Assembly: GCA_963514005.1 (NCBI GenBank)
Contig: OY740801.1
Location: forward strand, 23,684,001 to 23,748,000
Length of the DNA: 64,000 nt
Origin: Raja brachyura
Taxonomy: Eukaryota
Reading direction: 5' to 3'
A model generated the notes under the pieces. That model had not been told where the DNA came from. It searched no databases and was given only the letters and a program-made list of their open reading frames with translations. Both the position numbers and the translations under genes were made by a program. Positions 5,208 to 56,900 of this stretch are shown piece by piece (position 1 is the first letter of the stretch; the number at the start of each line of letters is the position of its first letter).

Positions 5208-5376
5208 AGATAGACATAAAATGCTGGAGCAACTCAGCGGGACATGCAGCATCTCTGGAGAGAAGGAATGGGTAACGTTTTGGGTCGAGACCCTTCTTCA
5301 GAGTTGATGGATGAGTTACTCCAACATTTTGTGTCTACCTTCGATTTAAACCAGCATCTGCAGTTCATTCCTACAC
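5208..5376. mobile_element. Short PLE-derived element with 14-bp TSD
   Basis: Partial inverted arms. Minus-strand hammerhead-like core at 5274-5301 with GAAA changed to AAAA. TSD cgtttccatattgt at 5194-5207 and 5377-5390. Confidence 0.8.
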
Positions 5377-7779
5377 CGTTTCCATATTGTGCTGTTGTGG
5401 GTCATTTCATGAGACTGCAGCTGATTGGGATGAGGATAAAAAAATGTAAAATTTTTTTGGTACACAATCTGTACTCCAAATCTTCCATGCGCAGCAGAGC
5501 TCTAAACAACTATGGTATTTTTCTACATACAGTTCGTGGAAAAATGAAGTAGACTTCAGCCTGTAAATAGGTGTGACCCAGAGCTAAAATCAATAAATTG
5601 TTAAAGACCAAAATAGTTATGGAGATGGGTAATATGCTGCTTTGATTAGTCATGGATGTGAGTCAATCAAATCGAGCTCAGTAAAGCATTGTACTTTGCC
5701 CCTGTGATGTATGTTAACCTCTGCCTTTGATTATTCTGTCAGGGTAATATTATTTTCCTTGTTAGGAATTTGAGAGTGCTGACTGATAAAGGAAATAGGA
5801 ATAAAGGAATTTAAATCCATGGTTAGTTAATGGGATTAAGGTTTGGTTGGTCCCATTGGGCAGTTTTGCTCTGCAATCTATGCATTGTCAACAACTAGAA
5901 GGCAGTTCTGTGCTTTGGGCTCATGCCTGTTTGGAGCTGGATCAGATCTCTGGGTGGGGGGGTTGGGCATTTCTACTTGATTGCAGGCCAACACAGCTTC
6001 ATGTAGAGGCTGAAGCTGCTCAGGATGACTGTGTAGACAGTTATTGGTAACGTGAGAAGCAGTGATTTCTTTGCCACTTGCTTACAGGTCACCTAAGGTT
6101 GAGGAAGAGAAACTGAGTTTCAATTTTACTGCTTGTAACATTGCAGTATTTAGGCCCACAACCACCGAGAGGGTATAGAACTGATGTTTTAAATTCCCTT
6201 GTTCTGTCATTTTCTTTTTCTTTGCTACATTCAGATCAACCAAACTGCACACCTACACTTCTGTGTGAGTTAGTGAGAAAGAGACCCTTGAGTAATTTGG
6301 GGCTGTCAGCATGTAAATTTAGGTAAGAGTGTGCATGGACTTGCAGTCATGAATGCTGATTGAAGCTGGCAATTTGTGGTGTTGAACAGGACCGTTTTTC
6401 GATGTTTACTGTGGAACTGCCTTTGGCACACCAAGATATCCCGAATAACAAGATGGCTTCAAGAATACTTTGTTCCGCTGAGATGTAGCAAAGGCCATGG
6501 GTTGCGGAAAGGTAGAATGTTGATCTTGAATGTGATCTTGTCGCAGATTCACTTCTATTTATATGAATTTAAACCTCTGTTCTCGGACACAAATGTTGGA
6601 ACTATCAATACAAAATTGAGTCAGCTACAAATATGAGGCAGTTGAGTCTGGATGTTCCTCTAAACAGCTCCTTCTCTCGTGTCTGTGTATCTCCGCACTC
6701 CCTGTCTTCTATTTTGCAATTTCTTTACAATTTTCCCTTTCCAGTCCGACTTGCCACCTGCTGAACCCTACTTTTTAAAAAAACTTTTTTGTGTTCGTTT
6801 TTTTTGTTGTAGGCTGCACTTATTTTGACTCATCAATAAAATCAGGGACTGAGACAAATACTGGAAGAGTCGGGCAACATCTGTAGTAACAGAAATAGTG
6901 AAGAGTGTTTACCTGTCATGTGTACCGACAATGGAACGGTAGAATTATTTCTTACGCAGCATTACAGGTCCATTAATGCAATAACATAGAAATATATATA
7001 TTATATACAATAACGCCATAAATTAATCGTCAGTAATACTCTGTCAACCTCTGAGTCTGTGAACCTCCTTATTTGTTATCAGTTTTTATCTTTAGTTTCA
7101 GATTTCCTGCATGTGCAGGTTTTCATTTACATAGACAAATTTCTTCTCCAGTTCTGAGGCCTGCCAGTGCACCTCTTGCCCCCTCAAGATTGTGCCAGTA
7201 TGTTTCAAGATGCCAAAAAGAAATACATTTTAAGTGGCATCAGGCTGCATTTGTTGAACCGATTATTGAATCTGATGGAGCAACATCTTTACATCAACAT
7301 TATGGCCAGTTATCTGCTTTGTAGTTTATTGCATTGTGATGTATTGTAGTTACACTTAACTACTATATTTAATTACTTACTGTTACACATTTAAGGGGAA
7401 TAAATGAGTTCTAAAGTGGTTCATTATAAAGGAGCAGCAGTGTGATCAGTGAATGAATGGTGGTGTTCATTATATCTTTGCTTTATAGCCACGAGATGAA
7501 GTTGATCAGCTGTCGAGCATTTTGGAGGCCACTTTAGTTATAGTTTTGTGAAACGAGATAAGTTTGGTTAAGTCGTACAGCGTGTGATCACTTATCAAAG
7601 AGCAATCATGATCAGTGTAGTGTTGAAAGGAGAAATGTGAAACAGCTACCCGGCTTTCTAAACTTTTTATTGTAAACTGTTTTTCTGACCTATTTTCTAT
7701 ATAATGAGGGGGAGAACATTATGATAAATAAAGACAATCTCCTTTGTATGTAACTATTGTAGAGTTGAGAGATGTTTAA

Positions 7780-8270
7780 AATAATTTGTGATGTAGAAGC
7801 CTGAAGGATAAGACTCCTGCAGCCACAAGCATGTTACTAGCACTGCACCATCTAGGTATCCTTAGCAGTGTTCTCATGGAATCATTTTAGGCCACCTTTA
7901 GTCTCTGCAAATTTGTCTTTCCGTGGTTTGACCATGGGTGCAAAGTATAGAGTGGTGTGCAATATGCTCTAAACAGAGACATCTTCACCACATACGTACA
8001 TGCACCAAACTTGCGCAAGAGAATATTTGCCTGTGCATTCAGCATACATCATTGCCTATAAATATCCTCATCATCTGTCATTTGTTCTGTAATAAAATGC
8101 CCAAGATATTTTTCCTTATTACAGACACTAAGATTATTGTTAACCAATTTAAAATCGGGACATTTCAGACATTTGTCCTCTTTGGTTCTACAAATCATAA
8201 CAGCACTCGTACAAGCATTGATTATATTTAATGTCATGTTCCACACCATACACAGAACATATAGTAAGGA
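7780..8270 (-). mobile_element. Non-LTR retrotransposon RT C-terminal fragment (RTE-X-like)
   Basis: ORF 8049-8249: CPDFKLVNNNLSVCNKEKYLGHFITEQMTDDEDIYRQ, a KYLG thumb-region motif. Confidence 0.6.
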
Positions 8271-8300
8271 GCTGCTGGAAACCAGTAAAGATTAAAGCCA

Positions 8301-8517
8301 GGGGGTTACACAAAAAGCTGGAGAAACTCAGCGGGTGCAGCAGCATCTAAGGAGATAGGCGACGTTTCGGGTCGAGACCCTTCTTCCGTCTGAAGAAGGG
8401 TCTCTACCCGAAACGTCGCCTATCTCCTTCGCTCCTTAGATGCTGCTGCACCCGCTGAGTTTCTCCAGCTTTTTGTGTAACCCTCGATTCTCCAGCATCT
8501 GCAGTTCCTTCTTTAAC
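8301..8517. mobile_element. Short palindromic PLE-derived element with 14-bp TSD
   Basis: Near-perfect inverted arms of about 85 bp centred near 8388. TSD aaagattaaagcca at 8287-8300 and 8518-8531. Confidence 0.85.
8390..8417 (+). ncRNA. Minimal type-I hammerhead ribozyme motif (putative)
   Basis: CTGAAGA-A-GGGT-CTCT-ACCC-GAAAC-GTC: CUGANGA core, stem II, GAAA, palindromic ACGU stem III, GUC cleavage triplet. Stem I is weak. Confidence 0.6.
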
Positions 8518-11500
8518 AAAGATTAAAGCCAAACCTTTTTAGGAATAAAGCTAGGAAATATTTCTAAAGTGGTAGAAAATCAGAAGTCTTACACAAACAA
8601 TAAACCATAAGTACTAATTTTGCATTAAGAAATGATTTTCATTAACAGATGTTATGAAGAGATATCAAACAATAGTGGATAAATGGAGTGGATGGCAGGT
8701 TTACAGGTTTATAAAATAGTAGTGGGAATACAAGGGGCCAGATACATGCCCTCTGTTGTCTAGTTCTGGTGTGTAGAGCTGTGGCCCGGAGACACCATCA
8801 GGTGAGTGGCTTCCATTTCATCAAATGTTTATAAAACTAGAGAGTTTAATATGTAAAATGTGTAAGCTGGAAGAGGGTAGAAGTGTTGTATGCATTGTTG
8901 TTTGGTCTTTTATTGGCTTGCTGGAACACCACACAAGTCATGTTTTGATAAAGGAAATAGCTTGTCTGGTTTTATGGTTTCGCTATTGCTGTGGAAGTAC
9001 CATTTCACTTGTTCAACTTGTTCAACACTTCACAGGCTTGGTTCCTCTCCTCTAATAATCCATGTGGCTGAAATAATGAACAAATAGATTCTATCGATAC
9101 AGCACCTTTACTGTGTGTCTGAGGAAGAGGAGGGAGGGGGCACCTACAGGAATGTTATTGTTGAATATTAGTCCACTTCTGATCGTCAGCAATGTGATAT
9201 CGAAGTAATCTCCAGTGCCCATGTGGGTGTTTTGCCTGAACTACGCAGCTCCAACCAAGGCTTTAGCACAGCCTCAGACCAAAGATCGGCCAAAGAGCTA
9301 AGTTCCAAAGTGAGTAAAGTGTGAGCACTTGAATATGTGTCATGGAGCCATGGGAAAGTGAAGATTATTGGGTATCAAAAGAGAAGCTCTCCACAGATTA
9401 GAGCTTGACCTTTTGGTTAGAATACTGCATGCAGCTATGGTCAACCCACTGCAGGGAGAATGTGATAGCATGAGAACGGGTGTGGAGCAAATAACCAGGA
9501 TGTTACCAGGGAAGGAGAATGATGGTTATGAGTAACTTTAGGTTATTGTTTTCTTCACAACAAAGGAATATATGTTTTGGCAGGTTTAGCTGAGAGTGAG
9601 AGTGAAATGGAGAGCTATTTCCCTTGGAGAGATCCTATGCTGGGGACACATTGAACTTGGGCAGTGGACCGAGGATGAAAGATTGACCATAGCTGATGGG
9701 GAGTAGAATTGTGGATCTCTGCCCCGAAAGGGTTTGGATGCAAAGCACTTCAGGGCAAGATGCCTGTGTAATCTGAAACTGGTAGGGCTCTGGACAACGA
9801 GCTAGCAACTAGGGTTACCTTGAATAACATGCCTTTCACGCTGTATAGATGTTGTGGGCCTTCTAGGCTCCTTTAGGAGCCATTGGTTGTATCATTCCCA
9901 CGTGGGAGGCAGTATGCAGTTTTGATGGCTCAGAACGTTTCAGCCGACCCAGTCTCTGCTTGTAACGCAAGCCGTCCAGTCCCAGCAACATAAACATCCA
10001 AACCAAACAAAACGTCTTTGTGATTCTTTTCTGCATCTTCCAGCTTCATTGTATCCTTCCTATATTGCACATAATATTCCAGGCTCGGTCTTGCCAAAAT
10101 CCTATGCAGCTGTGATATGATGTCTCAACTCTTGCACTCAGTTATCCTGCCCAGTTAAAGCAAATGTGCCAATACATCCTTCATCTTGTCTAGCTGGTCA
10201 GAACTGTGCAGGAACTCTGTATTTGTCCCCCTAGGTCACTGTTCTACAACGCTCCCAGGTCCTGTCATTGCCTGTGCAAGTTCAGCTACAGTTTAACCTC
10301 CCCAAATGCATCATTTCACATTTGCCCGAGTTAAATTCCATCTGCCATGCCTTTGCTTATTTTCCCAGTTGATTTAGGGCATATTGTGACCTTCGACAAC
10401 TTTCCCCACTGTCCACCACATTGCAGAGAAATGGATAGGATGGTTTTGGAGAAATACGAGCCAAATGCAGGAAAATGAGACTAGCTCAGGCAGGCAGGCA
10501 CCGTGGTCAACATAAATGAGTTGGACCAAAGGGCCTGTTTCTCTGCTGTGCATCTCCAAATCTTCTAGGAAACATTGAGAATGTATTTTCATAAAGTGGC
10601 AGTTCTTTCTGAAACTTTGGTATCCAAAGCAAAGTTTCTTACCCCAATGTATAGCTGATGAATGACTACAAACACTGGCCCCATAGCAGAAGGGTCCATG
10701 TCGCGAGGCTGGAAACTGGAAGTATCTTGAGTTAATTCTGCTACCACCGTCATCTATTGCAACAAGTGATGGCTCCCACTGATTGTCGCCGGAAGCTTGC
10801 ATCCTTTTCAGGACGGACGATGACAGCGAATTCAACATTTGAAACATGGGAGATGGTTACAAAAGAAGACGACTACAAACACTAAACTTATTTTGCTCTC
10901 TGCAGTTGATCTGAGTATTATAACTGCAGTTTTTCAGACTAGAGTGTTCATTTCCTATCTCATGTGTAATTCGCACAGACCACATACTGTGATCATTTCA
11001 CTCTGCATGAGATTAGCCCAGCTTCTCAATTGCCTGATGGCTGAGAAATGACCAATGGTTGTGAAATGCAACTCTCTAGTTTGTAAATAACACTTGATAT
11101 GCAGAAGTTGCACAATGTTATAAATAGCTTTGGGGAGGAAAGGAGGGTTTGAGTATTGTATGTATGTCCATGCTTGAGAATCTTAACATGGCTCACTATT
11201 CTTTTGTCTTGGCACGTTAAATTTTCTTGACTCCTAATGTATTTTTCGTCTCATCTGTATTGCAATGCAACTACTTTTTAATTGTGGTATTTTGGGTAAG
11301 GCCAGCATTTATTGCCCTGGTGAAAATGTTAATATGCTACCACCACAAACTGCTGCAGTACTTTGTAGAACCTTCGGCAAGACTGCTGTTGACTCGGCAG
11401 TTGCAGAAATTAGCAACAATGATTATATTTTCAAATTTATCTACAGTACATGTGATTGAGCACTTGGTATTCCTATGTTATTCTATTATGCTCTTCCAAG

Positions 11501-12339
11501 TGATGGAGATTGCTGGTTTAAATCTGTTGTTAGAGGAGCCTTGGTGAATTGCTTCATTACAGCTGCAGTGTCACTGGTGAAGAGAATGCTTAGACTGCAC
11601 GATTGCCTGACAAATGCAGCAGGCCGCTTTGACCTGGATGATGAGTATTTGATATTGGTGGGACTCATTTATTATATAGCACGGAAGTGTGCCTTCGCCC
11701 CAAATACTATTCAGTTACATTCTTGATTTGTCTTGTTCATTTGTAAGTTGGGAGTGGGCCTTTGTTTGCAGTGTCCAGCCTCTAACCTGATCTTGTAGCC
11801 CTAGGTCACTGTTCTACACACTCCCAGCTTAAGTAAGATTTGCGTTCCTAAAGTACATAAGAACCACCAGGGCAGGGTCCTAAGTCCAGTCATCTTCACC
11901 TGCAAATTCAGTGATCTTTCCCTACTGTAAGATCCAAACTGAAGTTAGAATATAGAACAGTACAGCACAGGAACTGGCCCTTCGTCCTACAATACCTGTG
12001 CCGAATATGCCAAGACTAACTATTTTCTGTCTGCAGATACTTCACATTCCCTGCATATCCACGCGTTTATCCAAGTCTCTTATATACCCGTATACATTGC
12101 CCCGACCAATGAAGACAAGCATATCATGTGCCTTCTTTAATACAGTTTGATAATTCCATATGTTCCGTCCTATTTACATTTCTTCAGTAAATGAAGCATC
12201 TATACCGCAAGGTATGGGCAGCAATCGAGTTGCCCAGCTGTGTATCAAGTAACATTTATGCTACTGAAGTGCCAAAACCAGGCCTACAGCATTCAAAGTA
12301 CTTGAGAATCCAATTGTCTTGAGCTCACTATTTTTAATA

Positions 12340-12528
12340 CTAGACACCAGGTGCTGGAGTAACTTCGTGGCTCGGGCCGCATCTGGACATGGATAGGTGA
12401 CTTGAATCTGATGAATTTTCCTATCTGAAACATCGCCTATCCATGGTCTCCAGAGATGCTGCCTGGCCTGCTGTGTCACTCCAGCAGTGTCCTTCTTTGT
12501 AAGCCAGCATCTGCAGTTCCTTGTATCT
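12340..12528. mobile_element. Older palindromic PLE-derived element
   Basis: Inverted arms (tgctggagtaac.../...cactccagca). CTGATGA...GAAACATC core at 12408-12434. cagcatctgcagttcc tail. Confidence 0.65.
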
Positions 12529-13264
12529 GCATTTTCAGAGGGCTTGACGGCCAAAAGCTCCAATATTTACTATAATTCAGAACGGGGAGCTGAGGCCTCA
12601 CAATCCAGACTTTGCACCATTTGATGAGGATACCAGCGTAGTGTAGTTGTGCTTCTGATGCTGTTCGTGATGTGCAGTCCCTAAGCTTGGAAATGCTCCC
12701 CTGCCAAGCACTGTTCAACTAGGTGGCTCATGTCTAGTGGCTCATGTTGAACTCCTTTTTATCTAATGGTGTTCTATTGTCATCTTCACCCTCGGAACTA
12801 ATTTAATCGTCAACGTGAGCAAGATCCCAGAAATGTTGAGTAAGCTTTGCAGAAGACGGATGCATGTGATTCTGTAATCTAGCCAAATCTTGTTCTGTGA
12901 GGCCTCTCTGGTTTGTATTCAAGGGATGGTTTAGACAGCACTAACATGGGCTGTTTGCTTTGAGCTACATTGCCATGCCAAGTGAGTAAGAACAGTCTGT
13001 GCAAGTGAGAGGTTTTCTGATGACGGCATGGTGGTATTCAGCCTGGCCCCTAAACTCTTCCCACGTTTGCAATGCACTCTGAGCTGTGCAGCATTCAAGT
13101 AAGAAGGGAAATTTGCTCCCCGTTTGATGTAAAAAGGAAATAAGGTGGTGTTAACCCTCAATTGAAAAAAATAGTTTCATTTCAGACTCCTTTCTGGCTA
13201 TGGGTTAAGTGTTTGAGTTTTTCAAAATGCCTGACTGAATCAAAAGCTGGAGTGCAATCATTAG

Positions 13265-13398
13265 GGGTACACAAAAGGCTGGAGAAACTCAGCGGGTGCA
13301 GCAGCATTGTCAGTGTACAGTACAGAGACAACGAAATGCATTGGGAGATAGGTGACGTTTCGGGTCGAGACCCTTCTTCAGACTGGAATGCAATCTTC
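13265..13398 (-). mobile_element. Short PLE-derived element with 14-bp TSD
   Basis: TSD agtgcaatcattag at 13251-13264 and 13399-13412. Single arm, interrupted by about 37 nt of foreign sequence. Confidence 0.75.
13354..13381 (-). ncRNA. Minimal hammerhead ribozyme motif, intact core (putative)
   Basis: Reverse complement reads CTGAAGA-A-GGGTC-TC-GACCC-GAAAC-GTC. Confidence 0.6.
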
Positions 13399-14905
13399 AG
13401 TGCAATCATTAGTATGGAGCATTGTAAGTGGTGTAACGTTGGTACGATTTGTTTGATTCCTCTCTTGATATAGTTTGAATTGCAAGGAGGTCAACACTTC
13501 CCTTCTCTCTCTCTCTCTCCTTGTTTCTGCTGCCCCCTTACCCCAGCCAGTGTCAGTGAGGTCACATTCACACTGAACTCTTCTGCTAAAACGCAGATTT
13601 ATCCAGGCGTGTTGGGGTGTACCCACTGTTTTGTGGTTTGTCACTCCAGGATGTTTTTTAAATTGCAATTGAAGATGGTGGCTATTCCTCTTGAATTGTT
13701 TTTTACTCTGGTTCCACAATTTTTTGATTAACATTTTTTCATTTGGTTCATTCTCCAGTTGGCTTAAAAAATATTAAATCTTCATGGATGTGTGAAGGTG
13801 GTGAGTGGATGAGTAAATTAAGGAAAATATGTTGGGATTGCATATCCTTCATACATTTTAACCATGAGTTTATCCATGTGTACATTTAACTAAATGTTAC
13901 CTGCTCAACACCATGTTGACTCAGCGCCTTGGCAGGGGTTGTGACATTGATCCAGTCCTCAGAGTTAAAGTGAAATCTTAACGAATTGTGCAGTCTGCAT
14001 GCACAATGGATAGTTTTTCAAGATCTACTCCAGACCATATTGAGTCATACGAGTAAAACTGGGGCAGTATGGTAGATGAATGACCCCAGCTTTCTGACAA
14101 AGATTTTCAGCTTTTGGATATGGTCAGGATCAATAACATATGTTGCAATTCTTGCAGAAATTTTAGAATAGTTGAGTTGCATAGCACAAACAGGCCCTTC
14201 AACCACTATGTCTATGCTACCCATCATGCCTGCTGTACTAATCTCACGCCTGCATTAATTCCATATTTCTCTATGCCTTGCTCAATTATGTGCCTGTCAA
14301 GATGCCATAAATCTTGCTGATTATCTCAAAGTTGTGACCGGGTATTTGCTCGTTCCACTTGTATTTCAAGTGTTCCAAAATTCCCCAAAACGTTGCCTCC
14401 ATATTTTGTCGAACCTCAACTTTTAAGTCAACTACAGGTCATCCTCAGATTACATATCTTGTATACATGGGAACAAGTGTTTGGGAGACACATAGTGGAT
14501 TTGCTGGCTACTACCGGGCTGCTAGCATCTTCTGCCATGTGGGAATTTGGTTAATAGTAATATCTGACTGATTGAGTTAACACCTTGGTTACCCTTTGTT
14601 GCGCTATGTTTTTAAATCTGTAACCGGACGACTGCATTTCCAATTTGCAACCTGTTTAGATTATGAACAGCACTCGGGAAGACACTTCATGTGGAGGATG
14701 GTGTTGCCTAATCTCTATTCTCTAGTTTAAATCTTCCCAAACTCATCTGAACTTGCTAATAAGAACCACCCATTGTAGTTTAAGGCACTGTTTAAGAGAT
14801 ATGCATTATCCTGCATAATGTACTTTGAGAAGTTTTTTGAATGATTCTCAATAGCTCAGCTTGCTCTCTGGATAGCTCCATACACTTAATGTTTGTTTCC
14901 CCCAG

Positions 14906-14996: not shown

Positions 14997-17900
14997 GTAA
15001 GTGCCTGGAGATGTCGAATAATTCTAGCTCATCGCCACATTCTTCGGGAGTTCTGATAATCTGACGGGTTACTTAGTATATAAAGAAAGGAACAACCCAC
15101 ACTATCAACCTGTTTTGGATGATGTCTTTCCTGTCTGGCAGCTGCTGCGATACTAACAAGTGCCTGTTGTGAACAGAGACCTGACGGTCCTCTGTTAGGG
15201 TTAGAATTTGCTCACTTGCCCTTCTCCCTACCTGCTACAGCAGGGCCCAATTAATCAAGCTTAAAAACATGCCTTAGTGTGTGGCAAGCTCAGGAGGTGG
15301 GGCAGTATCTGATGTACAGTTATTGTTCCGGTTCAGTAATCTTTCATCAACTGTGTCAGCACTAAACTGGTTGTGGTAGAAAAAGGAGAGGAAAGAACGG
15401 GGTGGAAGATCTATGATTAAATGACAGAAAGAAGACAACCAAAACAAATAGGTTTAAAATCATGATCTAAATTTTCTGGTTCTGATGAAAGTTCATTGCT
15501 CTGAAATGTTTAACTGTGTTTCCCCCTTTCCAGGTGCTGCATTTTCAGTTTTTGTTCCAGATTTGTTATGTCTGCAGTTTGTGCCTTGTTAATTACTTTT
15601 GAGCAAACTAGGTAACACAGTGGTGCAGCAGGTAGTTCCAGCAATCTAGATTCAACCCTGACTTTTGATGCTGTCTCTTTGGAGTTTGCAAGTTCTCCCT
15701 ATAGAAATTTAGAAAAATAGGTGCAGGATTAGGCCTTCCAATATGATCATGGTTGGTTATCTAAAACCAATATCGCATTCCTGCTTTATTCCCATATCCC
15801 TTGATTCCTTTAGCCCTTAGAGCTAAATCTAACTCTCTCTTGAAAACATCCAGGGAATTGGCCTCCACTGCCTTCTGTGGCAGAGAATTCGACAGATTCG
15901 CAACTCTCTGGGTGAAGAAGTTGTTCCTCATCTCAGTCCTAAATGGCCTACCCCTTATTCGTAAACTGTGACCCCTGGTGCTGGATGCCCCCAACATCAA
16001 GAACATTTTTCCTGCATTTCGCCTGTCCAATCCTTTAAGAATTTTATATGTTTGTATAAGATTCCCTCTCATCTGTCTAAATTTCAGTGAATACAAGCTC
16101 AGTCGACACATTCTTTCATCATATGTCAGTCCCGCCATCCCGGGAATTAACCTGGTGAACCTACGCTGCACTCCCTCAATAGCAATAATGTCCTTCCTCA
16201 AATTAGGAGACCAAAATTGCACACAATACACCAGATGCAGTCTCACCAGGTCCCTGTACAACTGCAGTAGGACCTCCTTGCTCCGAAATTCAAATCCTTT
16301 TGCAATGAAAGCCAACATGCCATTAGCTTTCTTCACTGCCTGCTGTACCTGCATGCTTATTTTCAGTGACTGATGTACAAGCACACCCAGGTCTCATTCC
16401 ACCTCTAATTTGACACCATTCAGATAATAATCTGCCTTCCTGTTCTTGCCACCAAAGTGGATAACCTCACATTTATCCACATTATACTGCATCTACCATG
16501 CATCTGCACACTCAGCCAACCTATCCGTGTCACTCTGCAGCCTCATAGCATCCTCATTGCAGCTCACACTGCCACCCAGCTTTGTGTCATCAGCAAACTT
16601 GGAGATATTACATTTAATTCCCTCGTCTAAATCGTTAATATATATTTTAAATATCTGGGGTCCCAGCACCGAGCCTTGCGGTACCCCACTGTTTGCTGCC
16701 TGCCATTCTAAAAAGGACCCATTAATTCCTACTCTTTGCCTCCTGTCTGCCAACCAGTTTTCTATCCATGTCAATACTCTACCACCAATACCATGTACTC
16801 TAATTTTGCAAGCTAATCTCTTGTGTGAGACCTTGACAAAGGCTTTTTGAAAGTCCATATAAACCACATCCACTGGCTCTCCATGATCCATTCTACTTGT
16901 TACATCCTCAAATAATTTCAGAAGATTAATCAAGCATGATTTCCCCATCATAAATCCATGCTGACTTTGACTAATCCTGTCACAGCTTTCCAAATGTACT
17001 GCTATAACATCTTTAACATTCGACTCTAGCATCTTCCCCACTACCGATGTAAGGCTAACTGGTCTATAATTCTCAGGTTTTTTTTTTCTCTTGCGCTCAC
17101 ATTGGCTACCCTCCAGTCCACAGGAACTGATCCAGAGTCGAGAGAACATTGGAAAATGATCACCAATGCATCCATGATTTCAAGGGCCTGCTCCTTGATG
17201 CAGACCATCAGCCCCAGGGGATTTATCTGCCTTCAGTCCCATAAGTTTACCTAACACCAATTCCTGACATGTGAATTCCCTTCAGTTCCTCCCACCCACT
17301 AGATCTGCGGACCCCTCGTATTTCTGGGAGATTGTTTGTGTCTTCCTTGGTGAAGACAGAACCAAAGTACTTGTTTAACTGTTCTGCCATTTCCCGTTTC
17401 CCATTATAAATTCACCTGTACACACAAAATTCTGGAGTAACTCAGCGGGACAGGCAGCATCTCTGGAGCGAAGGAATGGGTGACGTTTCGCATCAAGACC
17501 CTTCTTCAGACTGATCAGTCTGCATTTTGTGTCTACCTTTGATTTAAACCAGCATCTGCAGTTCTTTCTTACACATAAATTCACCTGTCTCTGATTGTAA
17601 GGACCTACATTTGTCTAATCTTTTCCTTTTTACATATCTTTACAAAGAAGCTGTTGGAGTCTGTTTTTATATTCCCCTCAAGCTTCCTTTCATGCTCCTT
17701 TCGCCCCCTCTTAATTAACCCCTTTGTCCTCTTCCGTTGAGTTCTAAATTTCTCCCAGTCCTCCGGTTATTTGCTTCCTCTGGCCACTTTATATGCCTGT
17801 TCTTTGGATTTAACACTATCCTTGGTTTCCCTCGTCAGCCACTGTTGAGCCGCCTTCCCCGTTTCATTTGTTTGCTAGACGGGAATTAACAATTTTTGGG

Positions 17901-44900: not shown

Positions 44901-47900
44901 TTCATGGAGAACGTGGATCGATGACGTTTCAGTTCAGGACGCGTCTTCACCCGAAAAATCACCTATCCATGTTATCTAGTGATGCTGCCTGACCTCCTGA
45001 GTTACTCCACTTTTTTTTGCAGACCAGCACTTGTGGTTCTTTGTTCTATTTATTGCTGCAAGAAGCTAACTTGTTAAAAAGTGATGTTAAATTTGCCACA
45101 ATTTGAGCAAGTGAATATAAAAGGAGTTGAAATGCAAGCACTCTTAGAGAAACGTGTTCTAATCTTGCATCTGTTTTAGGTAGATTTGTAGACTAGCTGT
45201 GGTTACGCTGATTAAGGAGACTTGATGCAATATAAGCACACCTATAGCATTTGAGACAAAGGCATGGAATTGTTTAGCACAAAAATAACTCTGACCCAAC
45301 TCATCCATGCCAAGCGTGGTGCCTGTCTACACCAATCTAATTTCCTGCATTAGACCCGTATCCCTCTAATCCTTATCCATGTACCAGTCCAAACCATTTT
45401 TAAATATTGTAATTGTATCTATCTCTACCACCTCCTCTGGAAGCTGATTTCACATTCCCACCACCCTCTTTGTGAAAACACAACCCTTGGATTCCCTTTA
45501 AATTTATCGCCTTCTATTTTAAACCTATACTCTAGTTTTAAACTCTTACATTTTGAAAGAGACTCTGGCTATCTACCTTATCTACACCCCTCATCATTTT
45601 ATACACCCCAGCCTTGTACATTCCAGTGAGCATAAACCTAGCATTTACAATCTGTCCTTATGACTGCAGCCACCTTTGCTGGCAGTACTGTGGTGAATGT
45701 TTTCTGCACTTTCTCTGATGCTACACCCTCCTTCATGTAGTGTGGTGACCAGAACTGTGCACAATATTTGAGTACAGCCTGATCAAAGTTTGGTGCAGCT
45801 GCAACATGACATCCCAACTCTTATTTTGGTTTGGTTTATTATTATTCTTGCATGTCACTATCACCGAGATAGTGAAAATGCATACCACACGAGTAGTATC
45901 AAACCACACATGACTACAACAGGTAGTGCAAAAAGAGAATGGAAACAGTACAGAACATAGTATTACAGTTGCAGAGAAAGTGCAGATAACAAAAATGCTG
46001 GGGCCGCAGTGAGGTAGATTGGGCGATCGGGAGTATATTCAGTGTTCCGGGGGCAAGCATGCTGAATGCCCTCATTACTGCCCTACTACCTGTGTAGTCA
46101 TTGGCGAGCTCAGACTGCATGGTGTGTGCAGGTTTGATTGCTCAGCTATAGGAAGAACATCATTAAATGGAAATGGGTGGCGAAAAGTCTCGCCTGGATG
46201 TTAACTGAGTGTGCGGGCTTGTTATAGCAAGAGGTTGGATAGCCTTGGATTTTTTTCTTTGGATTGTAGGTGGTGACCTTATTATGGTACACAAGATCAT
46301 GAGGGGCATGGAGAAAGTGACCACTCTGTCTTTTTGCCAGGATTGCGGATTCTAAAATTAGAGGGATTTGGCTTAAGGTGAGAGGGGAGAGATTTAAGAG
46401 GGACCTCGGGAACAATTATTTCACTCTGAGGGTAGTCCATATCTGGAATGAGCTGCCAGGCGTTGCTATAGAAATGAACACAATTATGTCTTTTAAACAA
46501 TGGTTTGATATATGGATAGGAAAGATTTAGAGGGCTATGTGACGAGCCCAGCAGGCCAAATTGGGCCAAAGGTCCTGTTTCTATGCTATAAAACTCTGTG
46601 CATATTTACTGTGCATGTCTTGTTAGCATTTGTCATCCCAAAACTGCATTATTATCTCCCTGATTGGATTATATGCCAACTGTCACTGCTCTGCCCAACT
46701 TTCAAACTGATCTATGTGCCACCTATCCTTTCACAACCTCCTTCGTTGTCATCTACTCCAATCATTTTTGTGTTGTCAGTAAATTTACTAAACTGTCCGG
46801 CTGCCTTCTCATCCAAGTCATTTTGTTAAACAATGGTCCTAGCAGTGATCCCAGCGATACACCATTGGTGTAGGAAATAACTGCGGATGCTGGTTTAAAT
46901 TGAAGGTAGACACAAAATGCTGGAGTAACTCAGCGGGACAGGCAGCATCTCTGGAGAGAAGGAATGGGTGACGAGTCGGGTCAAGACATCACCAGGTCCT
47001 TCTCTCCAGAGATGTAGAGATGAGTTACTCCAGCATTTTGTGTCTACCTTTGAGATACATAATTGGTTACAGACTTCCTGTCTTGACCATCTGAACATGG
47101 AGATTCGTGTCCATGAACCAAAACGTCACCTGTTCATTTTCTCCAGAAATGCCTGACCCACTTAGTTGCTCTAGCAGTTTGTGTCTATCTTCCAATCTCT
47201 ACCACTGTCCTTGTCTTCCTACCACCAATTTGGATCCAGTTTGCCTGCACACCTTGTCACAGTCCATCATCGGTTATACCAGTAAGTGGGGGGGGAAACA
47301 AAGGGCGTGAATGGTTGTATTGGTGAGATGAGAATGTCATCAATATCTCCTCACAAGGACCTGGTGACTCGGGTAGTGGTTTCGACTGAGATTAGTTGCA
47401 CATTGCGGCACTGGCTATAGTGATGGCAAAGGTGCAGGGCTTTCCCCTCGCTTGGACTGATGTATATGCGCAATGGCTTAACGTGTGCCTTGGTGTTTCA
47501 TCACAGATGCATTGTTCTTTAGTTCACAGACTGAATATCACAGCAGAGAATGACTGTCGCCGTTTGCATTGCTCGTTACGTGATCTCAGCTCGCTCCTTC
47601 AGACCAGTGGTCGCCTGGCAGAGTATTTTATTGGGGACGTATTTGCTGGCAGATTTAATGATGCGCTCAGAGTAGTGGAAAGGTAAGACCTATTTAAATT
47701 GCTAGCTGAGTGCTTCAATAGTTGCTGGATCAATGAGATCTTGTGTGCTGTTTATTTCATTTTAATTGTTGCTAAAAATTTGGCGGGGAAATAACAATGT
47801 TTAGCAAATACTCAGCTAGTAAGAATTTCAAGGTCAGTTTATTGTCACCTGTACCAAGGTACGGTGAGATTTGAGTTATATTACAGCCGTACTAAGTGTA

Positions 47901-50900
47901 AAGCAACAAGGCAGAAAACAATAGACAATAGGTGCAGGAGTAGGCCATTTGGCCCTTCGAGCCAGCACCGCCAGTCAATGTGATCATGGCTGATCATCCC
48001 CAATCAGTACCCCGTTCCTGCCTTCTCCCCAATATCCCCCTGGGTCTGCTATTTTCAAGAGCCCTATCCAGCTCTCTCTTGAAAGCATCCAGAAAACCTG
48101 CTTCCACCACCTCTGAGGCAGAGAATTCCACAGACTCGCCACTCGCTGTGAGAAAAAGTGTTTCCTCGTCTCCGTTCTAAATGGCTTACTCCTTATTCTT
48201 AAACTGTGGCCTCTGGTTTTGGACTCCCCCAACACCGGGGACATGTTTCCTGCCTCTAGCGTGTCCAAGCCCTTAACAATCATATATGTTTCAATGAGAT
48301 CCCTTCTCATCCTTCTAAACTCCAGAGTGTACAAGCCCAGCTGCTCCTTTCTCTCAACATATGACAGTCCCGCCATCCTGGGAATTAACCTTGTAAACCT
48401 ACACTGCACTCCCTCAATAGCAAGAATGTCCTTCCACAAATAAGGGGACCAAAACTGCACACAATACTCCAGGTGTGGTCTCGCACAAAACCACATAAAA
48501 GTTATCATAAAAATCCATCACAGTGGATTCCGCATTGCTCACTGATGGAAGGCAATAAAGTTCAATCTTCCTCTTTGTTCTCCTGCGGTTGGGGCAGTCA
48601 AGCCATCCGCAGTCGGGGCGATCAAAGCCCCCGCAGTCGGGGCAACCGACGAGGGAAGCCCCCGTTAGGGTGATTGAAACTCCCACGTTGGGGCGGTTGA
48701 AACTCCCCAGTCGGCCTCTTCTTACCAGAAAGCGCGGGCTTCACGATGTTAAAGTCCACAGGCCCTGTGGTTGGAGCTTCAATCCCCCGCAAAGGGATCG
48801 CAAGCTCTGCAATGTTAAAGTCCCGCAGACTCAGGAAAGGCCGCCAACTGCACAATGTTAGGACGCAGTGAGGACAGAGATACGATACGGGGGAAAATCG
48901 CATCTCCGTCGAGGTAAGTGATTAGGGAAAAAAGTTTCCCCAAACCCCCCTTACCCCACATAAAACAATCCAAGGAACACTAAAGCATACTTTTAACACA
49001 TACTAAAAATAACAAAAAGAAGAAAAGACAGATAGACTGCTGGCGGTGCCATCCGGTGTTCAGCAATTCAGGGAGAAACAATTAATGGTACAAGATGTTA
49101 AAGGTCGTAAAGTGGTAACATCATCACAGTTTCTCTCTCCATTGATAGTACCCGACCTGCTGAGCATTTCCAGCATTTTCAGTTATGCCTTTACTAAATA
49201 ATGCCATTGATTTATTTACAATTGAATTTTCAACTCTCAAAAGTTTTGTTTGTGCCGCTATAATAATCCTCTTGATGATGTGCCAGAATAACTAAATATT
49301 TTTGTACTGTTTTCCAATTTCCTGATTCTCAGCTGACAATGTTTTACCCATGGAGTTCGGTCACCAATACCTTGTGCAGCCTGGACTGTATTCATACTAA
49401 AACCAAACTGTCAAAGCGTTTCATACTGTATCTCCTGAGGCCTGGCTTTTGATGTCTTAAGTTGTTTTTTGTGACCAGAAGAGGAAGGATCCAACTTTAC
49501 TATAAATTTCTATCCAATCCTTACACCCTCAGTCTTCTGCAATGTAGGGTATGCAAGCCTAGTTTCTAATCAGGGGGTTGGCTTGGGAATTACAGACAGG
49601 CCCTCCCTGTTTAGAACTATCTATTTGCCGCTACACGTAAGTTTCTCTCATTGCAGTCCTGCTCCAAATGTGTGTATGTTTAATGTGTTCTAACATCTAT
49701 ACATTTATTGCTGATTTCTCAGGCTAGTGGAAGTGACATCGTATGGGTCCCAAATCAAGCTGTACGATATGGAAACAGCAGTGCCATCTGTGCTGAAGCC
49801 AGATTTGATTGATGTGTAAGTACACAGTTGATCCTGTCGGCTAAATCTGTTTTGCATGTTGATATCAAAAGATGGACAAAATGGCACGCGTCTCTCCTGG
49901 TCATGCCCTGACATACCAACGGAAAGAAGCTAAACTGATCAAAAATGTGCTGCTGCTTGGCTTTGCCTTGAACTTAGCAATGGATTTGCCTGATCGAGTA
50001 TGGTCGTGTCCACTCAGCAGACAGTTACTGAAAACTTTAATCTGAAAACGTGTTGACAATAACTGTCCAGCTAAAGACTACCTGTTTGTCAGTCTGTGCC
50101 AACTCAGTGCAGCATAGAGGGAACGCCTGGACAACCTGTCCAGTTACTCAGTCCAATGTGATTTCCTCCTTATTGGGGACGGTGTTTGTTTTGAGGGTGG
50201 CAGGAACATGTTGAGGCAGAAGGTCAGCCTTATAAAAGGACTGGACAAGCTAGATGCAGGAAAAATGTCCCCAATGTTGGCTGAGTCCAGAACCAGGGGG
50301 CCACAGTCTTAGAATAAAGAGGAGGCCACTTAAGACGGAGGTGAGAAAAAACGTTTTCACCCAGAGAGTTGTGAATTTATGGAATTCCCTGCCACCGAGG
50401 GCAGTGGAGGCCAAATCACTGGATGGATTTAAGAGAGAGTTAGAGGGGCTAATGGAATCAAGGGATATGGGGAGAAGGTAGGCACGGGTTATTGATTGGG
50501 GACAATCAGCCATGATCACAATGAATGGCAGTGCTGGCTCAAATGGCCTCCTCCTGCATCTATTTTCTATGTTTCTATGTAACCTGAATGGATGGTGAAG
50601 CAGACTCAGTGATCCTACCTTTCATGACCACAGGGCTCTACAACCAATCGTTTGCTACACTGAGGAAATCTTGATAACCAGTCATATAGGAAAATCGTAC
50701 TGAGCAACATAAAGTCACAGTTAATCTGTTCTTAATGCCGATTGAACAAATAAATACTCTGCCAACAAAGCAGGGCGAGTGTACATTCTGTCTGCACAGA
50801 CACAGCTATTCACGTTGTTACCTCACGGCTCCAGAGACACTGGTTCAATCCTGACCTCTGGTGTTGTCTGTATGAAATCTGCATGTCTCCCTGTGACCAT

Positions 50901-53900
50901 AGGGTGATGAGCAAACTGACCCTGCTTTGTTGGCCAAGTATTTATTTGTTCAATTGACATTTCCAGAACAGATTAACAGTTAATTTTTCTTTTGCCCTCG
51001 GTTTTCTGGTTTCCTCACACATCCTAAAGAAGTGTGGGTTAATTGGCAGCGTAAACCACCACGTGCGTGTGGGAAGAATTGTATAATTTTGGGGTAGAAC
51101 AACGGATGGGAATGTGGGGGGTATAAAACCGATTGTGTGAAAGTGGGTGTTTGATGGTTGGCAGAAAGGGCTGTTTCCATGCTTCATTGCTCTGACCTTG
51201 GGTTAGCGTTGACGATGGCTCTTCTGGCAGTGCCGCAGCAGCTCATTACTTACTTGAACCCCCACTGTGGTCATCTCTACAATGGAACTCAACCTGCCAG
51301 CCTCCGACGGGGATGTGCTGCCCACTGAACCACCCGTGAGCACAGGGTTGTGTCGACTTGCACGTATGATGAAGACCAGGTCAGGGTAGAAGTCCCTCGG
51401 CTGCCTTCACCCAGGGTCTGTGTGGACTCGGAGTGGAGTTGGGGCCTTTCATGAATCTGCTTTACAAATCCTTATGGTTGAACTACTGGTCTTGTCTTGC
51501 AGCCACGCACAGTCACTGGCCGCGTTGCAGGCCTACGCCCATTGGCTGGCTCAGTTTTACAGCGAGGTTCAGCGGCAAAACCCAGAGCAATTTGTCTCTC
51601 TCATCTCCACTGCTATGGAAGCCACTGCTCCCCTCATCAGCACAAAGGTATGTCAGCAGCGTCACTGAACTCTGACAACACACAGAGCAGGTGCTCAATG
51701 AACCAACACTTTCATGGCTACTCAGCTTTTTTTTTTAATTGCTATTTTTAAATTTTAATTAAAATTAAATTTCCCTTGCTGCCATTGTGGAATTTGAATT
51801 GTGTCTCTGGAGCGGATATTGAGAACTCATACACCAGTGCAAGACTGCGTGAGATTGCCTTGTTGAATGGGGCGGTGAGGGGCATGCGCCAGAAAGCCTT
51901 ATGTTCCACATTGAGTTGTCTCGGCAGGTGCCAGAGAAGCTGCTGCTCTCAGCGTGCCATCTGCTGCTGTCGTTGGCCACTACCGTACGGCCCGTCTTTC
52001 TGGTCAGGATACGAGCCGTGCAAAAAATCTTCGACAGGATCACCGACGGCTCTGCTCGCCAGCTCCCCCAAGAGGTAGGTGGGAGAATCTGACGAGCTGC
52101 TCAGAATGAATTGGCAGAACTTGGCTGAATCAAAACTGCTCACTAGGCATGTCACTGATAAAAGATAAAAGATGCTATCTGTCAAAGGTTCCCAACTGCT
52201 CCGTACAGCTGTTTGTAAACTTCAGGATATAACCTTGGCTATCTGAACACAAAATGTATTTGTGTAGGAAAGAACTATGCCTGCCTCTTTGTAGGGTACG
52301 TCGAACAATCACTGTTCCAGGCGTACACTGACCCTATCCACGAACTCTACCTCTTCTACATTGATGACTGCATTGGTGCTACCTCCTGCATCCATGCAGA
52401 ACTCACTGACTTCATCAACTTCATGACTAATTTCCATCACAGGAGACATACTATTGACCGGCATCTATTACAAACCCAATGACTCCCATAGCTATCTTGA
52501 CTAAACTGCTTCTTGTAAAGACTCTATTCCCCCAACTCCCAATTCCTCCATCTATGCCGCATCTGCGCCCAGGATAAGGTTTTGCATACCAGGTCATCAG
52601 AGATGGCCTCATTCTTTAGGAAACGGGGGTTCCCATCTTCCATTATAATTGAGGCTCTCACTAAGGTCTCCTCGATACCCCGCAGCTTCGCTCTAGCTCC
52701 CCCTCCCCCCATTCGTAACAAGGACCGAGGCACCACCCCCCCCCCCCGTCCCGTCCCGTCCTCGCCTTCCACCACCCAATCAGCCATTGCATACAGCATA
52801 GAATTCTCCAACGTTTTCGCCAATGGGATCCCGCTACTGACCTATTTACTGGTTGCTCAGCACTTTAACTCCCCCTCCCATTCCCAACCTGACCTTTCTG
52901 TCCTGGGCCTCCAATGTCAGAGTGAGGCCCAGCGCAAATTGGAGGAACAGCACCTCATATTTTGCTTGGGTAGCTTACACCGCAGCAGTATGAACATTGA
53001 TTTCTGTAACTTCAAACAGTCCTTGCTTTCCCCCTCTATCCCCTCCACCTTCCCAGTTCTCTCACCAGTCTTACTGTCTCTGACTACATTCTATCTGTCC
53101 CGCCCACTCCCCTGCCATCAGTCTGAAGAAGGGTCTCAATCCGCATCGTCACCAATTCTTTTCACCAGAGATGCTGCCTGTCCCACTGAGTTACTCCAGC
53201 ATATCGTGCGTACAAAATGTATGTATTCAGTTCAGAGATACACCTTGGAAACAAGCCCATCGAGTCTGCACCAACCACTGATCACTCATTTACACGCTAA
53301 TTTTATGTTATGCTACTTTCCATCCACTCCCTGCACACTGGGGGAATTTATAGGTGGCCAATTAACCAACACCTGCATGTCTTTGGGATATGGGAGCAAA
53401 CCAGAGTACCCACAGGGAACTCACACGGTTATAGTGAGAACATGCAAACTCCACACTGACAGCATTCAAGGTCAGGATTGAACCTGGGTCTCTGGTGCTG
53501 TGAGACAGCAGCCCTACCTGGTACTGTTGATTTGGTTTCTGGTTATGATGCGAGGATTGTAGTGAGACGAGTCACCTCTGCTGTTTGGGTATACGTGTGT
53601 AACTGGGTTGATGCTGTGCTTCCCCCCCCCAGGGTAAGGTACTGGTGTGTCGGGCCTTGTCCAACATGTTGCTGCTACCGTGGCCAAACCTCCCTGAGAG
53701 TGAGCAGCAGTGGGCTGGCCGTTCTACCAATCATGCCAACTTAATATCCACCCTCACCAGAGAGTATCGGCAGCTGAAGGACAGTGCGGGACTGTCGCAG
53801 AACAAAGTGGCTCTGGGGGCCAGTGAGTATATCCCTGCACCTCTCCTGTATGTGCTGGATTTAAATCCCTCTGCAGCCATTTCTGCCCTACTGCTTGAAC

Positions 53901-56900
53901 AGTGCGCCGTGTCGAGAAATACACAAGTTCTTCCTGTAAACAGCAAACCCATTGAGGAAACATGTTCAAATCTTTAATAGCAACAGGATGAATCAGAAAC
54001 AGGAAGCGCCGTGTAATGCTGGAGTGCAAGATTTCTGGTGCCACGAGTAACCTTGAACTTGGGCTGTGCCTTATCACAGCCTGGCACTGATTAATTGCCT
54101 TGGGCATGAGGGTACAGGCAAACAGTCCACCACCAACGTTAAATGCTCTTTTCTTTTGAGGCATTGGTGAACATTCAGCAGTGGTTACAGCTGAGTTTCT
54201 AGGATGTAACTATTTTGCATTTATTTAATTGTATAAATTATCCCTGTGTGTTTCAGCAAAAGCAATTGTGCAAGACACGCTGAGCATCCTGAGGTACATC
54301 GTGGAGAACGTGTCTGGGGAGGTGACCAAATCCCGCCAGATCTGCTACCAGTCCCTTCAAGAGTCGGTGCAGGTCTCCCTGGCCCTCTTCCCAGTCTTTA
54401 TTCACCATCCGGGTACGGCAGTCTTTAGTTTACAGAGATAAGACCAGAAAAGGTAGAAATACTCGCGTTGTACGGCATCTGTGGAAAGAGGAATAGTTCG
54501 GGTTTAGATCAGTAACATTCCTTCAGAGCTGAGCAAAGTCAAACATACCTCAAGTTACAGAGGAGGGTGGAGGGGACAAAGGGATACATGTGATGGGAAG
54601 GAGGCCACGAGAGAGTGAATGACATGAGTGGGGGCAGGTGATCTGTCGGGGATTGCAAGTAGGAGACAGATGCTGCCTGACTTGCTGGGTGTTTCCAACA
54701 CTTTCTGCTTCCAACGTCTGCAAATTTTTGCCACTTACTTACATGTACTTGAGGTTCAGTGAGCAGCGCTACCCGTGGCTTCAGGGGCACATTGTTTGGG
54801 TTCCACTTGCAATCTGCCTGGAACTTCCTCGAATGAGATGAGGACATAAGGAACTGCAGATGCTGCAATCATGAAACGTAAAATGCTGAAGCAACATCTC
54901 TGGCGAGCATGGATAAGTAATGTTTTGGGTTGCGTCTGAAGAAGGGTCCCGGCCCAAAACATCACCTCTCCATATTCTCCAGAGACACTGTCTGACCCAC
55001 TAAGTTGCTGCATCACTCTGTTCTAATGGTGAATGTGGGTGTTACGCCCCCAGCTTTGGCGTCGTCCCACTGCCCAATCAGATCAAGTAAAGGATCCAAC
55101 TAAATTGCATCCCATCTGACCCGCCACAAAGATGCATTGCAATTAAATCGATACTGAGAGTGGTAGGTTTTTGTTGGCTAACTGTTATAGATTTGGAATA
55201 AAGGTACGCAAGATAGGTTTGGTTAAAGACCAGCCAGTTTAATATCAGTTAAAACTAGAACCTCCTGGTCCTGTAATTATGACCCCGAGTACCACCAGTG
55301 AGGAACATGTTGTCGGGTGTTCCCTTCACAGGAGGTTGGTTCCTTCTCAATCACATAACATGGTATCCTGACTTCATTCTTATCGGGGGTAGACAAAAAT
55401 GCTGGAGAAACACAGCGGGTGAGGCAGCATCTATTCCTTTGCTCCATAGATGCTGCCTCACCCGCTGAGTTTCTCCAACATTTTTGCCTACCTTCGATTT
55501 TTTGCAGCATCTGAAGTTCTTTCTTAATCATTCTTATCGGGCGTTCCTTCTTACCAGTGAGGTACTCTGCCAGTTATCAACCTGCTTTGTCTTGCAGGAC
55601 TTCTAGGGCTGAGGTGCCTGACTGATATCCAGTCTTATAGTAACTTGCACGGTGGCGCAGCGGTAGAGTTGCTGCCTTTCAGTGCTTGCATTGCCAGAGA
55701 CCCGGGTTCGATCCTGACTACGCGAGCTGTCTGTACGGAGTTTGTACGTTCTCCCCGTGACCTGTTTGGGTTTTCTCCGAGATCTTCAGTTTCCTTCCAA
55801 ACTCCAAAGAAGTGTAGGTTTGTAGGTTAATTGGCTTGGTAAATGCAAAAATTGTTCCTCGTGTGTGTAGGATAGTGTTAATGTGCGGGGATCACTGGTC
55901 GGCGCGGGCCGAAGAGCCCGTTTCTGAGCTGTATCGCTAAACTAAACTGCAAGATGTGTTATGTAGTTTTGTTTTAGTGATACAGCATGGAAAACGGTCC
56001 TTCCGCAAACCGACTATCGATCACCCATTCACACACATACTATGTTAAACCACTTTCTCATCCACTCCCTTCACACTAAGGACAATTTACGGAGGCCAGA
56101 TAACCTACAGACCTACGCGTCTTTTAGATGGTGGGAACTGGAGTACCCGTAGAAAACCCATGCTGTCACAGGGAGTACGTGCACACTCCACACAGTCAGT
56201 CCCCAAGGTCGGGATTGAACTCTGGACTCCAGTCCTGTGAAGCAGCGGCTCTATTGGGGCTTGGAAGGTGGGCTGGAGGTGTGCGGGAGCCACATTTGGT
56301 GAAATCCTGCTATCTCACGTTCCATAAGAAATAGTGCATTGTTTAATATGTTTTCAAGGATACATCTGGGAATACTGGAATATCAGTACTTTTGTGATTG
56401 GCATCTGTAAAAATGTCAGAAAGTGGGTAAAGCTGATCAAATCTCCGTGACATTAAGTTGTGGTTGCAACTTTAATTCCAATTACCTTTTACGAGCACGG
56501 ATTGACGCCATGTAGCATGAGTCCACCCATGGTAGATGTGTGGTGTCCTACTGTTCCAACTGGGTGCAGGCTGAAGTTGTCCCCTCTCCCTTCCAGGTAT
56601 CACAGATGAGATGCTCAGCTTCTTCCTCACTTTGTTTCAAGGCCTCAGGGTGCAGATGGGAGTTCCCTTCACAGAACAGATCATCCAAACGTTCCTCAAC
56701 ATGTTCACCAGGTAAGTGGCCTTGTCGACGTGAATGGTGAGACCCTGGGCTTTTAAAGATGGGTTGTGGAGTTCGTTCGCTCGTGTGTCGGACGATGTCG
56801 CTCGCTGTTGGCTTCTGTCATCGTCCAACATGTGGACAGAATTGTCGCCCGATGCATCACAGAGTGTATCGTGTTGTCGCTTCCACGGATCGCCACAAGG

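Follow-up and report, generated by a model that had tools for sequence, protein, structure and literature searches.

Penelope-like elements (PLEs) leave insertions that carry an inverted, 5′-truncated copy and a 30–40-bp tail at one end (PMC8557442; PMC3846280; PMC8969392). In vitro, the Anolis PLE Poseidon places this tail between two internal start sites of reverse transcription, extends both target strands and copies mainly uncut RNA (Frangieh et al. 2024, PMC11167929). Truncated PLEs yield minimal hammerhead ribozymes, either single or in pairs on opposite strands 100–700 bp apart (Cervera and de la Peña 2014, PMC4209133), and hammerhead tandem repeats accompany PLEs in the one chondrichthyan sampled in a study of non-LTR retrozymes (Li et al. 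2026, 10.64898/2026.07.22.740005). Here we describe short, often hairpin-shaped inserts with such hammerhead motifs in a 64-kb stretch of the Raja brachyura genome (‘the window’; contig OY740801.1, positions 23,684,001–23,748,000). The inserts are almost certainly the pseudo-long terminal repeat (pLTR) ends of a PLE, probably one of the Neptune type. We put at roughly 60% the probability of the full account, in which these PLE ends are flanked by ~14-bp target-site duplications (TSDs), are likely run-off copies and have no hairpin-shaped master; the run-off step by itself, i.e. copying from the first ~90–130 nt of uncut element RNA, we rate as slightly better than an even bet.

The inserts share features with each of these systems. 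As in endonuclease-positive Neptune-type PLEs (PMC8557442; PMC3846280), in which a reverse transcriptase (RT) is followed by a C-terminal GIY-YIG endonuclease (EN) and the pLTR holds a hammerhead, we find an RT and EN remnant, a hammerhead 3′ of the open reading frame (ORF), a one-sided tail, a TSD and an inverted, 5′-truncated copy at the 5′ end, the latter in 11 two-armed inserts and as a stub at 52262; what differs from those elements is that the majority of insertions in the window consist solely of two pLTR ends, whose 5′ boundary falls sharply at the hammerhead core. The core itself (CUGANGA, GAAA and NUH, with a bulged A, stem II, the G10.1–C11.1 pair and a palindromic ACGU stem III) is the published minimal type-I motif of metazoan PLEs, as the sequence-only reading had proposed, and its stem I of only 2 bp has been reported for D. 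virilis as well (PMC4209133). Poseidon, a member of a different PLE clade, is alike in its two internal start sites bounding the tail, in the extension of both strands and in the use of uncut RNA; in vitro, neither of its start sites was preferred by either strand (PMC11167929), whereas in nearly all inserts of the window each arm starts at a site of its own. Non-LTR retrozymes are likewise non-coding and pLTR-related with a type I hammerhead, but they are defined as head-to-tail tandem units (10.64898/2026.07.22.740005); the inserts described here contain no head-to-tail hammerhead units and are dispersed, either singly or head-to-head.

The parent element is represented in the window by one decayed copy at 52262–53211. 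Translation of 52273–53013 recovers part of an RT (NYACLFVG...YIDDCIG), followed by a thumb segment and by the last part of a GIY-YIG endonuclease; the reading is broken by stops, deletions and a frameshift, and the GIY motif itself is deleted. The hammerhead core and an arm follow at 53123, core position C3 lying 110 nt past the EN match (53013 to 53123). The motif at 53123, previously listed only as decayed, is therefore part of the 3′ untranslated region (UTR) of an RT and GIY-YIG remnant, which bears out the suggested PLE link. A Pfam search of the remnant returned nothing, and longer relatives escaped a word-index search; they were recovered by a full HMMER scan queried with the thumb-plus-EN frame, which gave 190 matches at E≤0.001, of which the best 150 are considered here. 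The best matches are ray and skate proteins and RT plus GIY-YIG proteins of 813–946 amino acids. Ten matches that we looked up include four from rays or skates and one from a sea urchin; the five long ones among the ten all have Pfam GIY-YIG and four of them also RVT_1, and both window pieces match an alignment of 13 such proteins (E=1e-20 and 8e-15). Among the matches listed, 47 proteins have the EN motif, and in 42 of these, ray and skate proteins included, a zinc-finger-like CX2-5CxxC linker joins RT and EN. This linker has been assigned to Neptune and Nematis (PMC8557442). Since it is deleted in the window copy, the clade assignment rests on the relatives, and by sequence 52262–53211 is probably a Neptune-type remnant, the linker being seen only in relatives and being common to Nematis. 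In related loci a 3′ hammerhead-like motif occupies the same region. We also observed host gene models that end in PLE endonuclease sequence (P0003, a Rhinoraja neuromedin-U receptor 1 model, and P0007); such endings may be the product of annotation capture or of exonisation.

The coding copy has the anatomy of the short inserts, namely a 13-bp duplication with one mismatch, an inverted 15-nt tail stub and a 4-nt microhomology joint (the latter two seen by eye), and the arms of one insert subfamily, A, run on into it. A BLAST search seeded with pieces of the window yielded 22 loci after merging, or 23 once 47106 is split from 46868; one locus holds a young copy nested in an old one. The 23 loci make up 3,999 bp (6.2% of the window, the 950-bp coding copy counted in), and their alignment comprises 35 arms that we sorted by eye into at least four subfamilies, labelled A–D; two subfamily B arms are identical at 122 of 126 positions, and an A arm matches a B arm at 73 of 89. 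Direct repeats of 11–17 bp flank the insert in 8 of the 24 intervals tested, as compared to scores of at least 11 in 0.7% of 300 random control intervals. These are exact 14-bp TSDs at 5208, 8301, 13265 and 17420 and repeats of 11–17 bp with 0–1 mismatch at 30846, 44859, 52262 and 55388; 31466 also scores at least 11, with the repeat offset from the insert, and was left out of the eight.

Eleven inserts are two-armed and head-to-head, each pair coming from one subfamily as judged by eye. The arms start at their 3′ side at two points about 35 nt apart, roughly +83 to +99 or +113 to +133 from C3; 3863L (+77) and 42327R (+79) score shorter than both ranges. A ~35-nt tail was placed on exactly one arm by script in 10 of the 11 two-armed inserts, and by eye in the eleventh (42280) and in the coding copy. 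The tail is itself an imperfect repeat of the preceding unit (CCAGC..., followed by ~15–20 nt and ending TAC or TAAC), as seen at 8452–8517, 46868–46935 (minus strand) and 55462–55527, and both RT start sites may thus follow the same RNA signal. Every hairpin junction is different, which argues that a hairpin arises anew with each insertion instead of being copied from a hairpin-shaped master. All copies are dispersed, and no tandem units were seen among them.

At their other end the arms stop in one place. Twenty-two of the 35 end before the core; of the 13 that reach C3, 12 end 0–6 nt upstream of it and the coding copy alone continues. Under a conservative stop rate taken from a hand tally (14 stops in 581 nt near the core), the probability of this is P=2.5e-9, and it is P=3e-6 for 8 of the 9 events in which a partner arm, a TSD or the ORF defines the boundary. 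A further view of the same site comes from reads and contigs placed on 52270–53240, drawn from 4 of 23 listed sequencing runs and from three organisms (82,000–91,000 contigs per run; 14,737 of 7,335,232 RNA reads): among 15 joints listed, all five strand-switch joints begin at 53118 or 53120 (4 runs, 3 organisms). The boundary is situated ~30 nt upstream of the GUC cleavage site, at which no template end maps; the templates of these inserts were therefore not cut at that site, and this indicates that uncut RNA serves as a template in vivo. The sequence-only reading had left open whether the inserts form a non-autonomous family mobilised in trans or are extreme truncations of a PLE. Short PLE products are the better fit of the two; against a separate hairpin-shaped family speak the unique junctions, the like anatomy of the coding copy and the fact that no tandem units were seen. 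The truncation is not random either, since the 5′ ends pile up just before the core.

The boundary coincides with TCAGTC, which we take to fit the initiator consensus, and CCGCCC at −23 is presumably GC-box-like; the latter is absent from the short inserts and may serve as a promoter element. Transcription begins inside the pLTR in D. virilis Penelope (PMC2377424), and a rotifer pLTR has a TATA box and an initiator-like TCACT (PMC3846280). We also noted at 53080–53122 a branch-point-like CTGAC, a pyrimidine run and CAG right before the core, resembling a 3′ splice site; helix I is where the pLTR intron of D. virilis ends (PMC4209133). Spliced RNA with a CAG acceptor at −4 to −2 was rejected as the cause of the boundary: there are arms ending at −1 or −2, and they have no common upstream exon.

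We propose that transcription would begin at TCAGTC and that the RT-endonuclease would nick both target strands ~14 nt apart, each free 3′ end then priming on RNA, one per internal start site. When priming in the 5′ pLTR, the RT would get to the RNA 5′ end within 90–130 nt; priming in the 3′ pLTR would give long copies such as 52262–53211. The two complementary DNAs (cDNAs) would finally be joined head-to-head by microhomology or filler, and it is at this joint that the hairpin would arise. Strong-stop DNA and the twin priming of L1 are familiar analogies.

Several observations weigh against this proposal. The window contains no coding partner for subfamilies B, C and D, we saw no full-length ray element and no 5′ pLTR, and a further 375 joints lie beyond the 15 listed. 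In a poly(A) RNA run, read starts do not accumulate at 53118–53120, although the test is weak, the library being fragmented and the run not known to come from the species of the window. In D. virilis Penelope, transcription starts at 371 and C3 is at 496, with 75 nt of intron lying between the two (PMC2377424; PMC4209133 supplement); after splicing, its start is thus ~50 nt from C3, not 3–6 nt. Of 80 metagenome loci of related elements, 22 have a hammerhead-like motif, and from these we drew 17 families of distant relatives. TATAWA starts 37–42 nt before C3 in 4 of these 17 Neptune-type families, as compared to 0.67 expected, with the position range picked after one case and some families related to one another; such a spacing fits an RNA start a few nt before the core, but the other 13 families have no TATAWA box in that range. 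All three second copies that span the core in distant relatives extend 46 to at least 200 nt upstream of it, in loci chosen for their long ORFs. Ungapped extension had made inverted copies in these relatives seem to end 3–9 nt before the core; this reading was discarded, as gapped BLAST carries them at least 200 nt further. Individual loci with a TATAWA box 36–42 nt upstream of the core are L009, L016, L049, L024, L035 and L052, of which L049 also has a one-sided tail.

Two other routes could lead to the same fixed boundary. Solo pLTRs could make their own ~130-nt RNA from TCAGTC and be moved in trans by the PLE protein, in the manner of a short interspersed nuclear element (SINE), the hairpins still being formed at insertion. 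We consider this unlikely, if worth keeping in view: it would account for the fixed 5′ boundary, for short ends outnumbering coding ends (22 of 23 loci), for the subfamilies devoid of an ORF in the window and for an RNA depth of 10,172 on the arm as compared to 1,178 on the endonuclease end (both strands summed), and rotifer pLTRs are reported to act in trans (PMC3846280). Against it, the coding copy prolongs the arms of subfamily A, the short inserts lack the GC-box-like element that may drive transcription, and the two strands contribute RNA reads over the core symmetrically (1,570 vs 1,549), as expected for inserts within host transcripts, although a 130-nt RNA would escape that library. 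A test for a SINE-like master gives a divided answer: the 5′ boundary is common, yet the junctions are unique and subfamily A runs into the ORF. Somewhat less probable still is that cDNA was primed in the 3′ pLTR and underwent ordinary 5′ truncation, the RT having stalled or folded back at a sequence or structure immediately 5′ of the hammerhead; no transcription start would then be involved. PLE insertions are known to be heavily 5′-truncated (PMC8557442), and the arms that stop ahead of the core, the small palindrome around the boundary (junction at 17411) and a tail that can pair with the core start in subfamily B would all suit such stalling. However, the single arms attached to TSDs (13265 and 30846) stop at the same place with no fold-back, the stop lies just past the structure and not in front of it, and the pairing of tail and core start occurs in two folded B arms but not in the folded A and C arms, which do not have both parts.

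The remaining two accounts attribute the inserts to the ribozyme or to a DNA transposon. A retrozyme-like cycle, in which a dimer is cleaved after GUC and the resulting unit RNAs or circles serve as templates, is favoured by the match of the core to the minimal motif (PMC4209133) and by better conservation of the core than of stem II outside CpG; we regard it as very improbable given the boundary upstream of the cut site, the lack of tandem units, a dimer fold that in three copies lies 4.6–19 kcal/mol above the cofold minimum and, in a weak test, the absence from the RNA run of read ends at the cut site (53150/53151). A miniature inverted-repeat transposable element (MITE), derived from a DNA transposon and bounded by terminal inverted repeats, would be just as small and hairpin-shaped, but the arms are unequal, with a tail on one side, and single-armed copies have TSDs; the PLE body at 52262–53211, in which the sequence continues into an RT-endonuclease ORF, rules it out.

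The hammerhead motif in these copies looks like a passenger that decays at about the rate of the arm. All nine positions at which the motif had been read were recovered on their strands: it is exact at 13354–13381 (minus strand), has one stem II mismatch at 30947–30974 (minus strand) and is decayed at 5274, 12408, 17482, 31468, 53123 and 54936, while the copy at 8390–8417 (plus strand), called intact before, carries one change in the loop. The motif was said to be present in most inserts and is found in about half of the loci; 11 arms span the core, and 5 of them keep all 11 core positions plus H17. The full 4-bp stem II with its tetraloop is retained only in 13354 and 8390. The geometry given earlier thus needs adjusting: stem II has 4 bp and a loop of 4 nt, the proposed 2-nt loop being unable to close, and stem I is 2 bp beside the core instead of 2–5, the upstream UTR having provided no longer stem I in a constrained fold. 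Counted against one intact copy, mismatches number 9 of 110 in the core and 14 of 80 in stem II (p=0.07), or 5 of 100 and 13 of 70 outside CpG (p=0.009), for arms that were chosen by a recognisable core start, a choice that favours the core. The expectation that the core would be more conserved than its flanks was not borne out, as the arm block, with 35 of 323 mismatches against its own majority, does not differ from the core (p=0.47). G12, which lies within a CpG, is altered in 4 of the 11 arms. We infer neutral decay of a motif that is kept in the masters.

In the two-armed inserts the core is predicted to be locked in a duplex and ribozyme activity to be blocked: the insert at 8300–8518 folds as one duplex (−171 kcal/mol, z=−25) in which the probability of stem II is 0.0, and in three single arms it is at most 0.06. 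Rfam covariance models gave no hammerhead match at E≤1 in the window, and the exact 28-nt core has no match in metagenome and viral contigs. Weak Rfam microRNA matches at 55380–55500 were dismissed, as they are far below the gathering scores and reflect hairpin shape.

The inserts reside in the gene for exportin-6 (XPO6) of a batoid, the largest exon being 99% identical to sawfish and skate XPO6. Eighteen of the 23 loci sit between matched XPO6 coding exons. The other five (3.9–13.4 kb) lie upstream of the first matched coding exon and are probably in intron 1, because that exon opens at a splice acceptor with codon 2. The span 5208–55527 first given for the family does hold such loci, but the family extends outside it, to 3863, 60210 and 60871. 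The coordinates are collected in Table 1.

Table 1. Positions of the PLE copy, the pLTR inserts and the host gene in the window
Feature	Position	Strand	Core	Tail	Flanking repeat	Other
Decayed, internally deleted PLE body	52262–53211	+	53123–53150		TSD 52249–52261 / 53212–53224 (13 bp, 1 mismatch)	inverted tail stub of 15 nt 52262–52276 (by eye); RT motifs incl. YIDD 52273–52437; thumb 52531–52720; GIY-YIG endonuclease end 52843–53013; then 3′ UTR, core, arm
GC-box-like CCGCCC (−23 from C3) and initiator-like TCAGTC right before core	53100–53122	+				common 5′ boundary at 53117–53122
Two-armed, subfamily A	5208–5376		5274–5301 (−)	right arm	TSD 5194–5207 / 5377–5390
Young two-armed, subfamily B	8301–8517		intact, 8390–8417 (+); truncated antisense core 8361–8388	right arm	TSD 8287–8300 / 8518–8531	one long hairpin when folded
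Old two-armed, subfamily D	12341–12522		12408–12434 (+)			stem II degenerate
Single arm, subfamily B	13265–13398	−	exact, 13354–13381	none	TSD 13251–13264 / 13399–13412	34-nt foreign filler
Two-armed, subfamily A	17420–17574		17482–17509 (−)	short right arm	TSD 17406–17419 / 17575–17588	16-nt palindrome at junction
Old two-armed (D)	30780–31095					split by young copy
Young single arm, subfamily B	30846–30974	−	30947–30974	tailed	direct repeat 30834–30846 / 30975–30987	97% identical to 8390 arm
Single arm, subfamily C	31466–31561	+	decayed, 31468–31495
Old single arm (D)	39800–39930	−	decayed			ends at TCAGT ahead of core
Old two-armed	42280–42425		core start absent
Old two-armed (D)	43400–43585		decayed, from 43502 (+)	left arm
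Old two-armed (D)	44859–45050				11-bp direct repeat 44848–44858 / 45054–45064
Two-armed, subfamily A	46868–47050		core start absent	left arm
Old single arm	47106–47192	+
Old two-armed (D)	54848–55025		decayed, 54936–54963 (+)	left arm
Two-armed, subfamily C	55388–55527		absent	right arm	TSD from 55374 / 55528 (first 14 bp exact)
Old arm fragment	3863–3914	−
More old fragments	27745–27850, 40248–40323, 49134–49179, 54668–54735, 60210–60289, 60871–60989
Host gene XPO6 coding exons, batoid	14906–61888	+

Individual inserts show further rearrangements. At 30780–31095 a young subfamily B arm sits inside an older subfamily D hairpin, with its target duplicated. At 13309–13343 the foreign filler replaces part of the arm in a copy that is otherwise young, which suggests a template switch during insertion. 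Short internal deletions recur in one arm of two-armed inserts (8303L, 12341L, 43543R, 46986R and 54848L), several of them flanked by microhomology. The window also holds fragments of a second retroelement, of the long interspersed nuclear element (LINE) type, at 2.2–2.9, 15.7–17.2, 23.3–23.7, 47.9–48.5 and 50.2–50.6 kb; we assume it to be CR1/L2, and one fragment has an RVT_1 match at 16493–17179 (E=3e-25, Pfam). Another dispersed short repeat, presumably similar to elasmobranch SINEs, is found at 4408, 33928, 36528–36753, 44198, 53380–53518, 55789–56255, 61118–61342 and 63364–63483 (families D9, D10, D12, D15, D17 and D19), and one copy of it begins ~170 bp past the PLE body.

Element class, ribozyme motif and inverted anatomy are all known from the literature, and the family itself may be catalogued in Dfam or Repbase. 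The detail that appears to be unpublished is that arms reaching the core stop 0–6 nt upstream of it: our literature search turned up neither this batoid family nor any account of a 5′ boundary placed at the hammerhead. The one supplementary file of PMC4209133 examined contains no cartilaginous fish, and the word Penelope is absent from the accessible text of the little skate paper (PMC10115646) and of a mobulid preprint (10.64898/2026.10.27.761883). For annotation, there is a risk that such inserts are mistaken for MITEs or microRNA hairpins.

A bolder and, to our minds, doubtful extension is that batoid genomes have been filled by a self-propagating ~130-nt RNA that starts at the hammerhead, with a dimeric PLE enzyme coupling priming at two nicks and at the two start sites of one RNA; if this were true, each hairpin would record the whole integration intermediate of a Penelope-driven, SINE-like family. 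The mechanism that we favour, run-off copying of uncut RNA into pLTR ends, could matter beyond this locus, as the origin of the inverted copies and one-sided tails and the role of the hammerhead are still open for PLEs (PMC8557442; PMC11167929). Minimal insertions that are very abundant and combine fixed starts, a fixed 5′ boundary and 14-bp TSDs would permit genome-wide tests of two-site priming and run-off.

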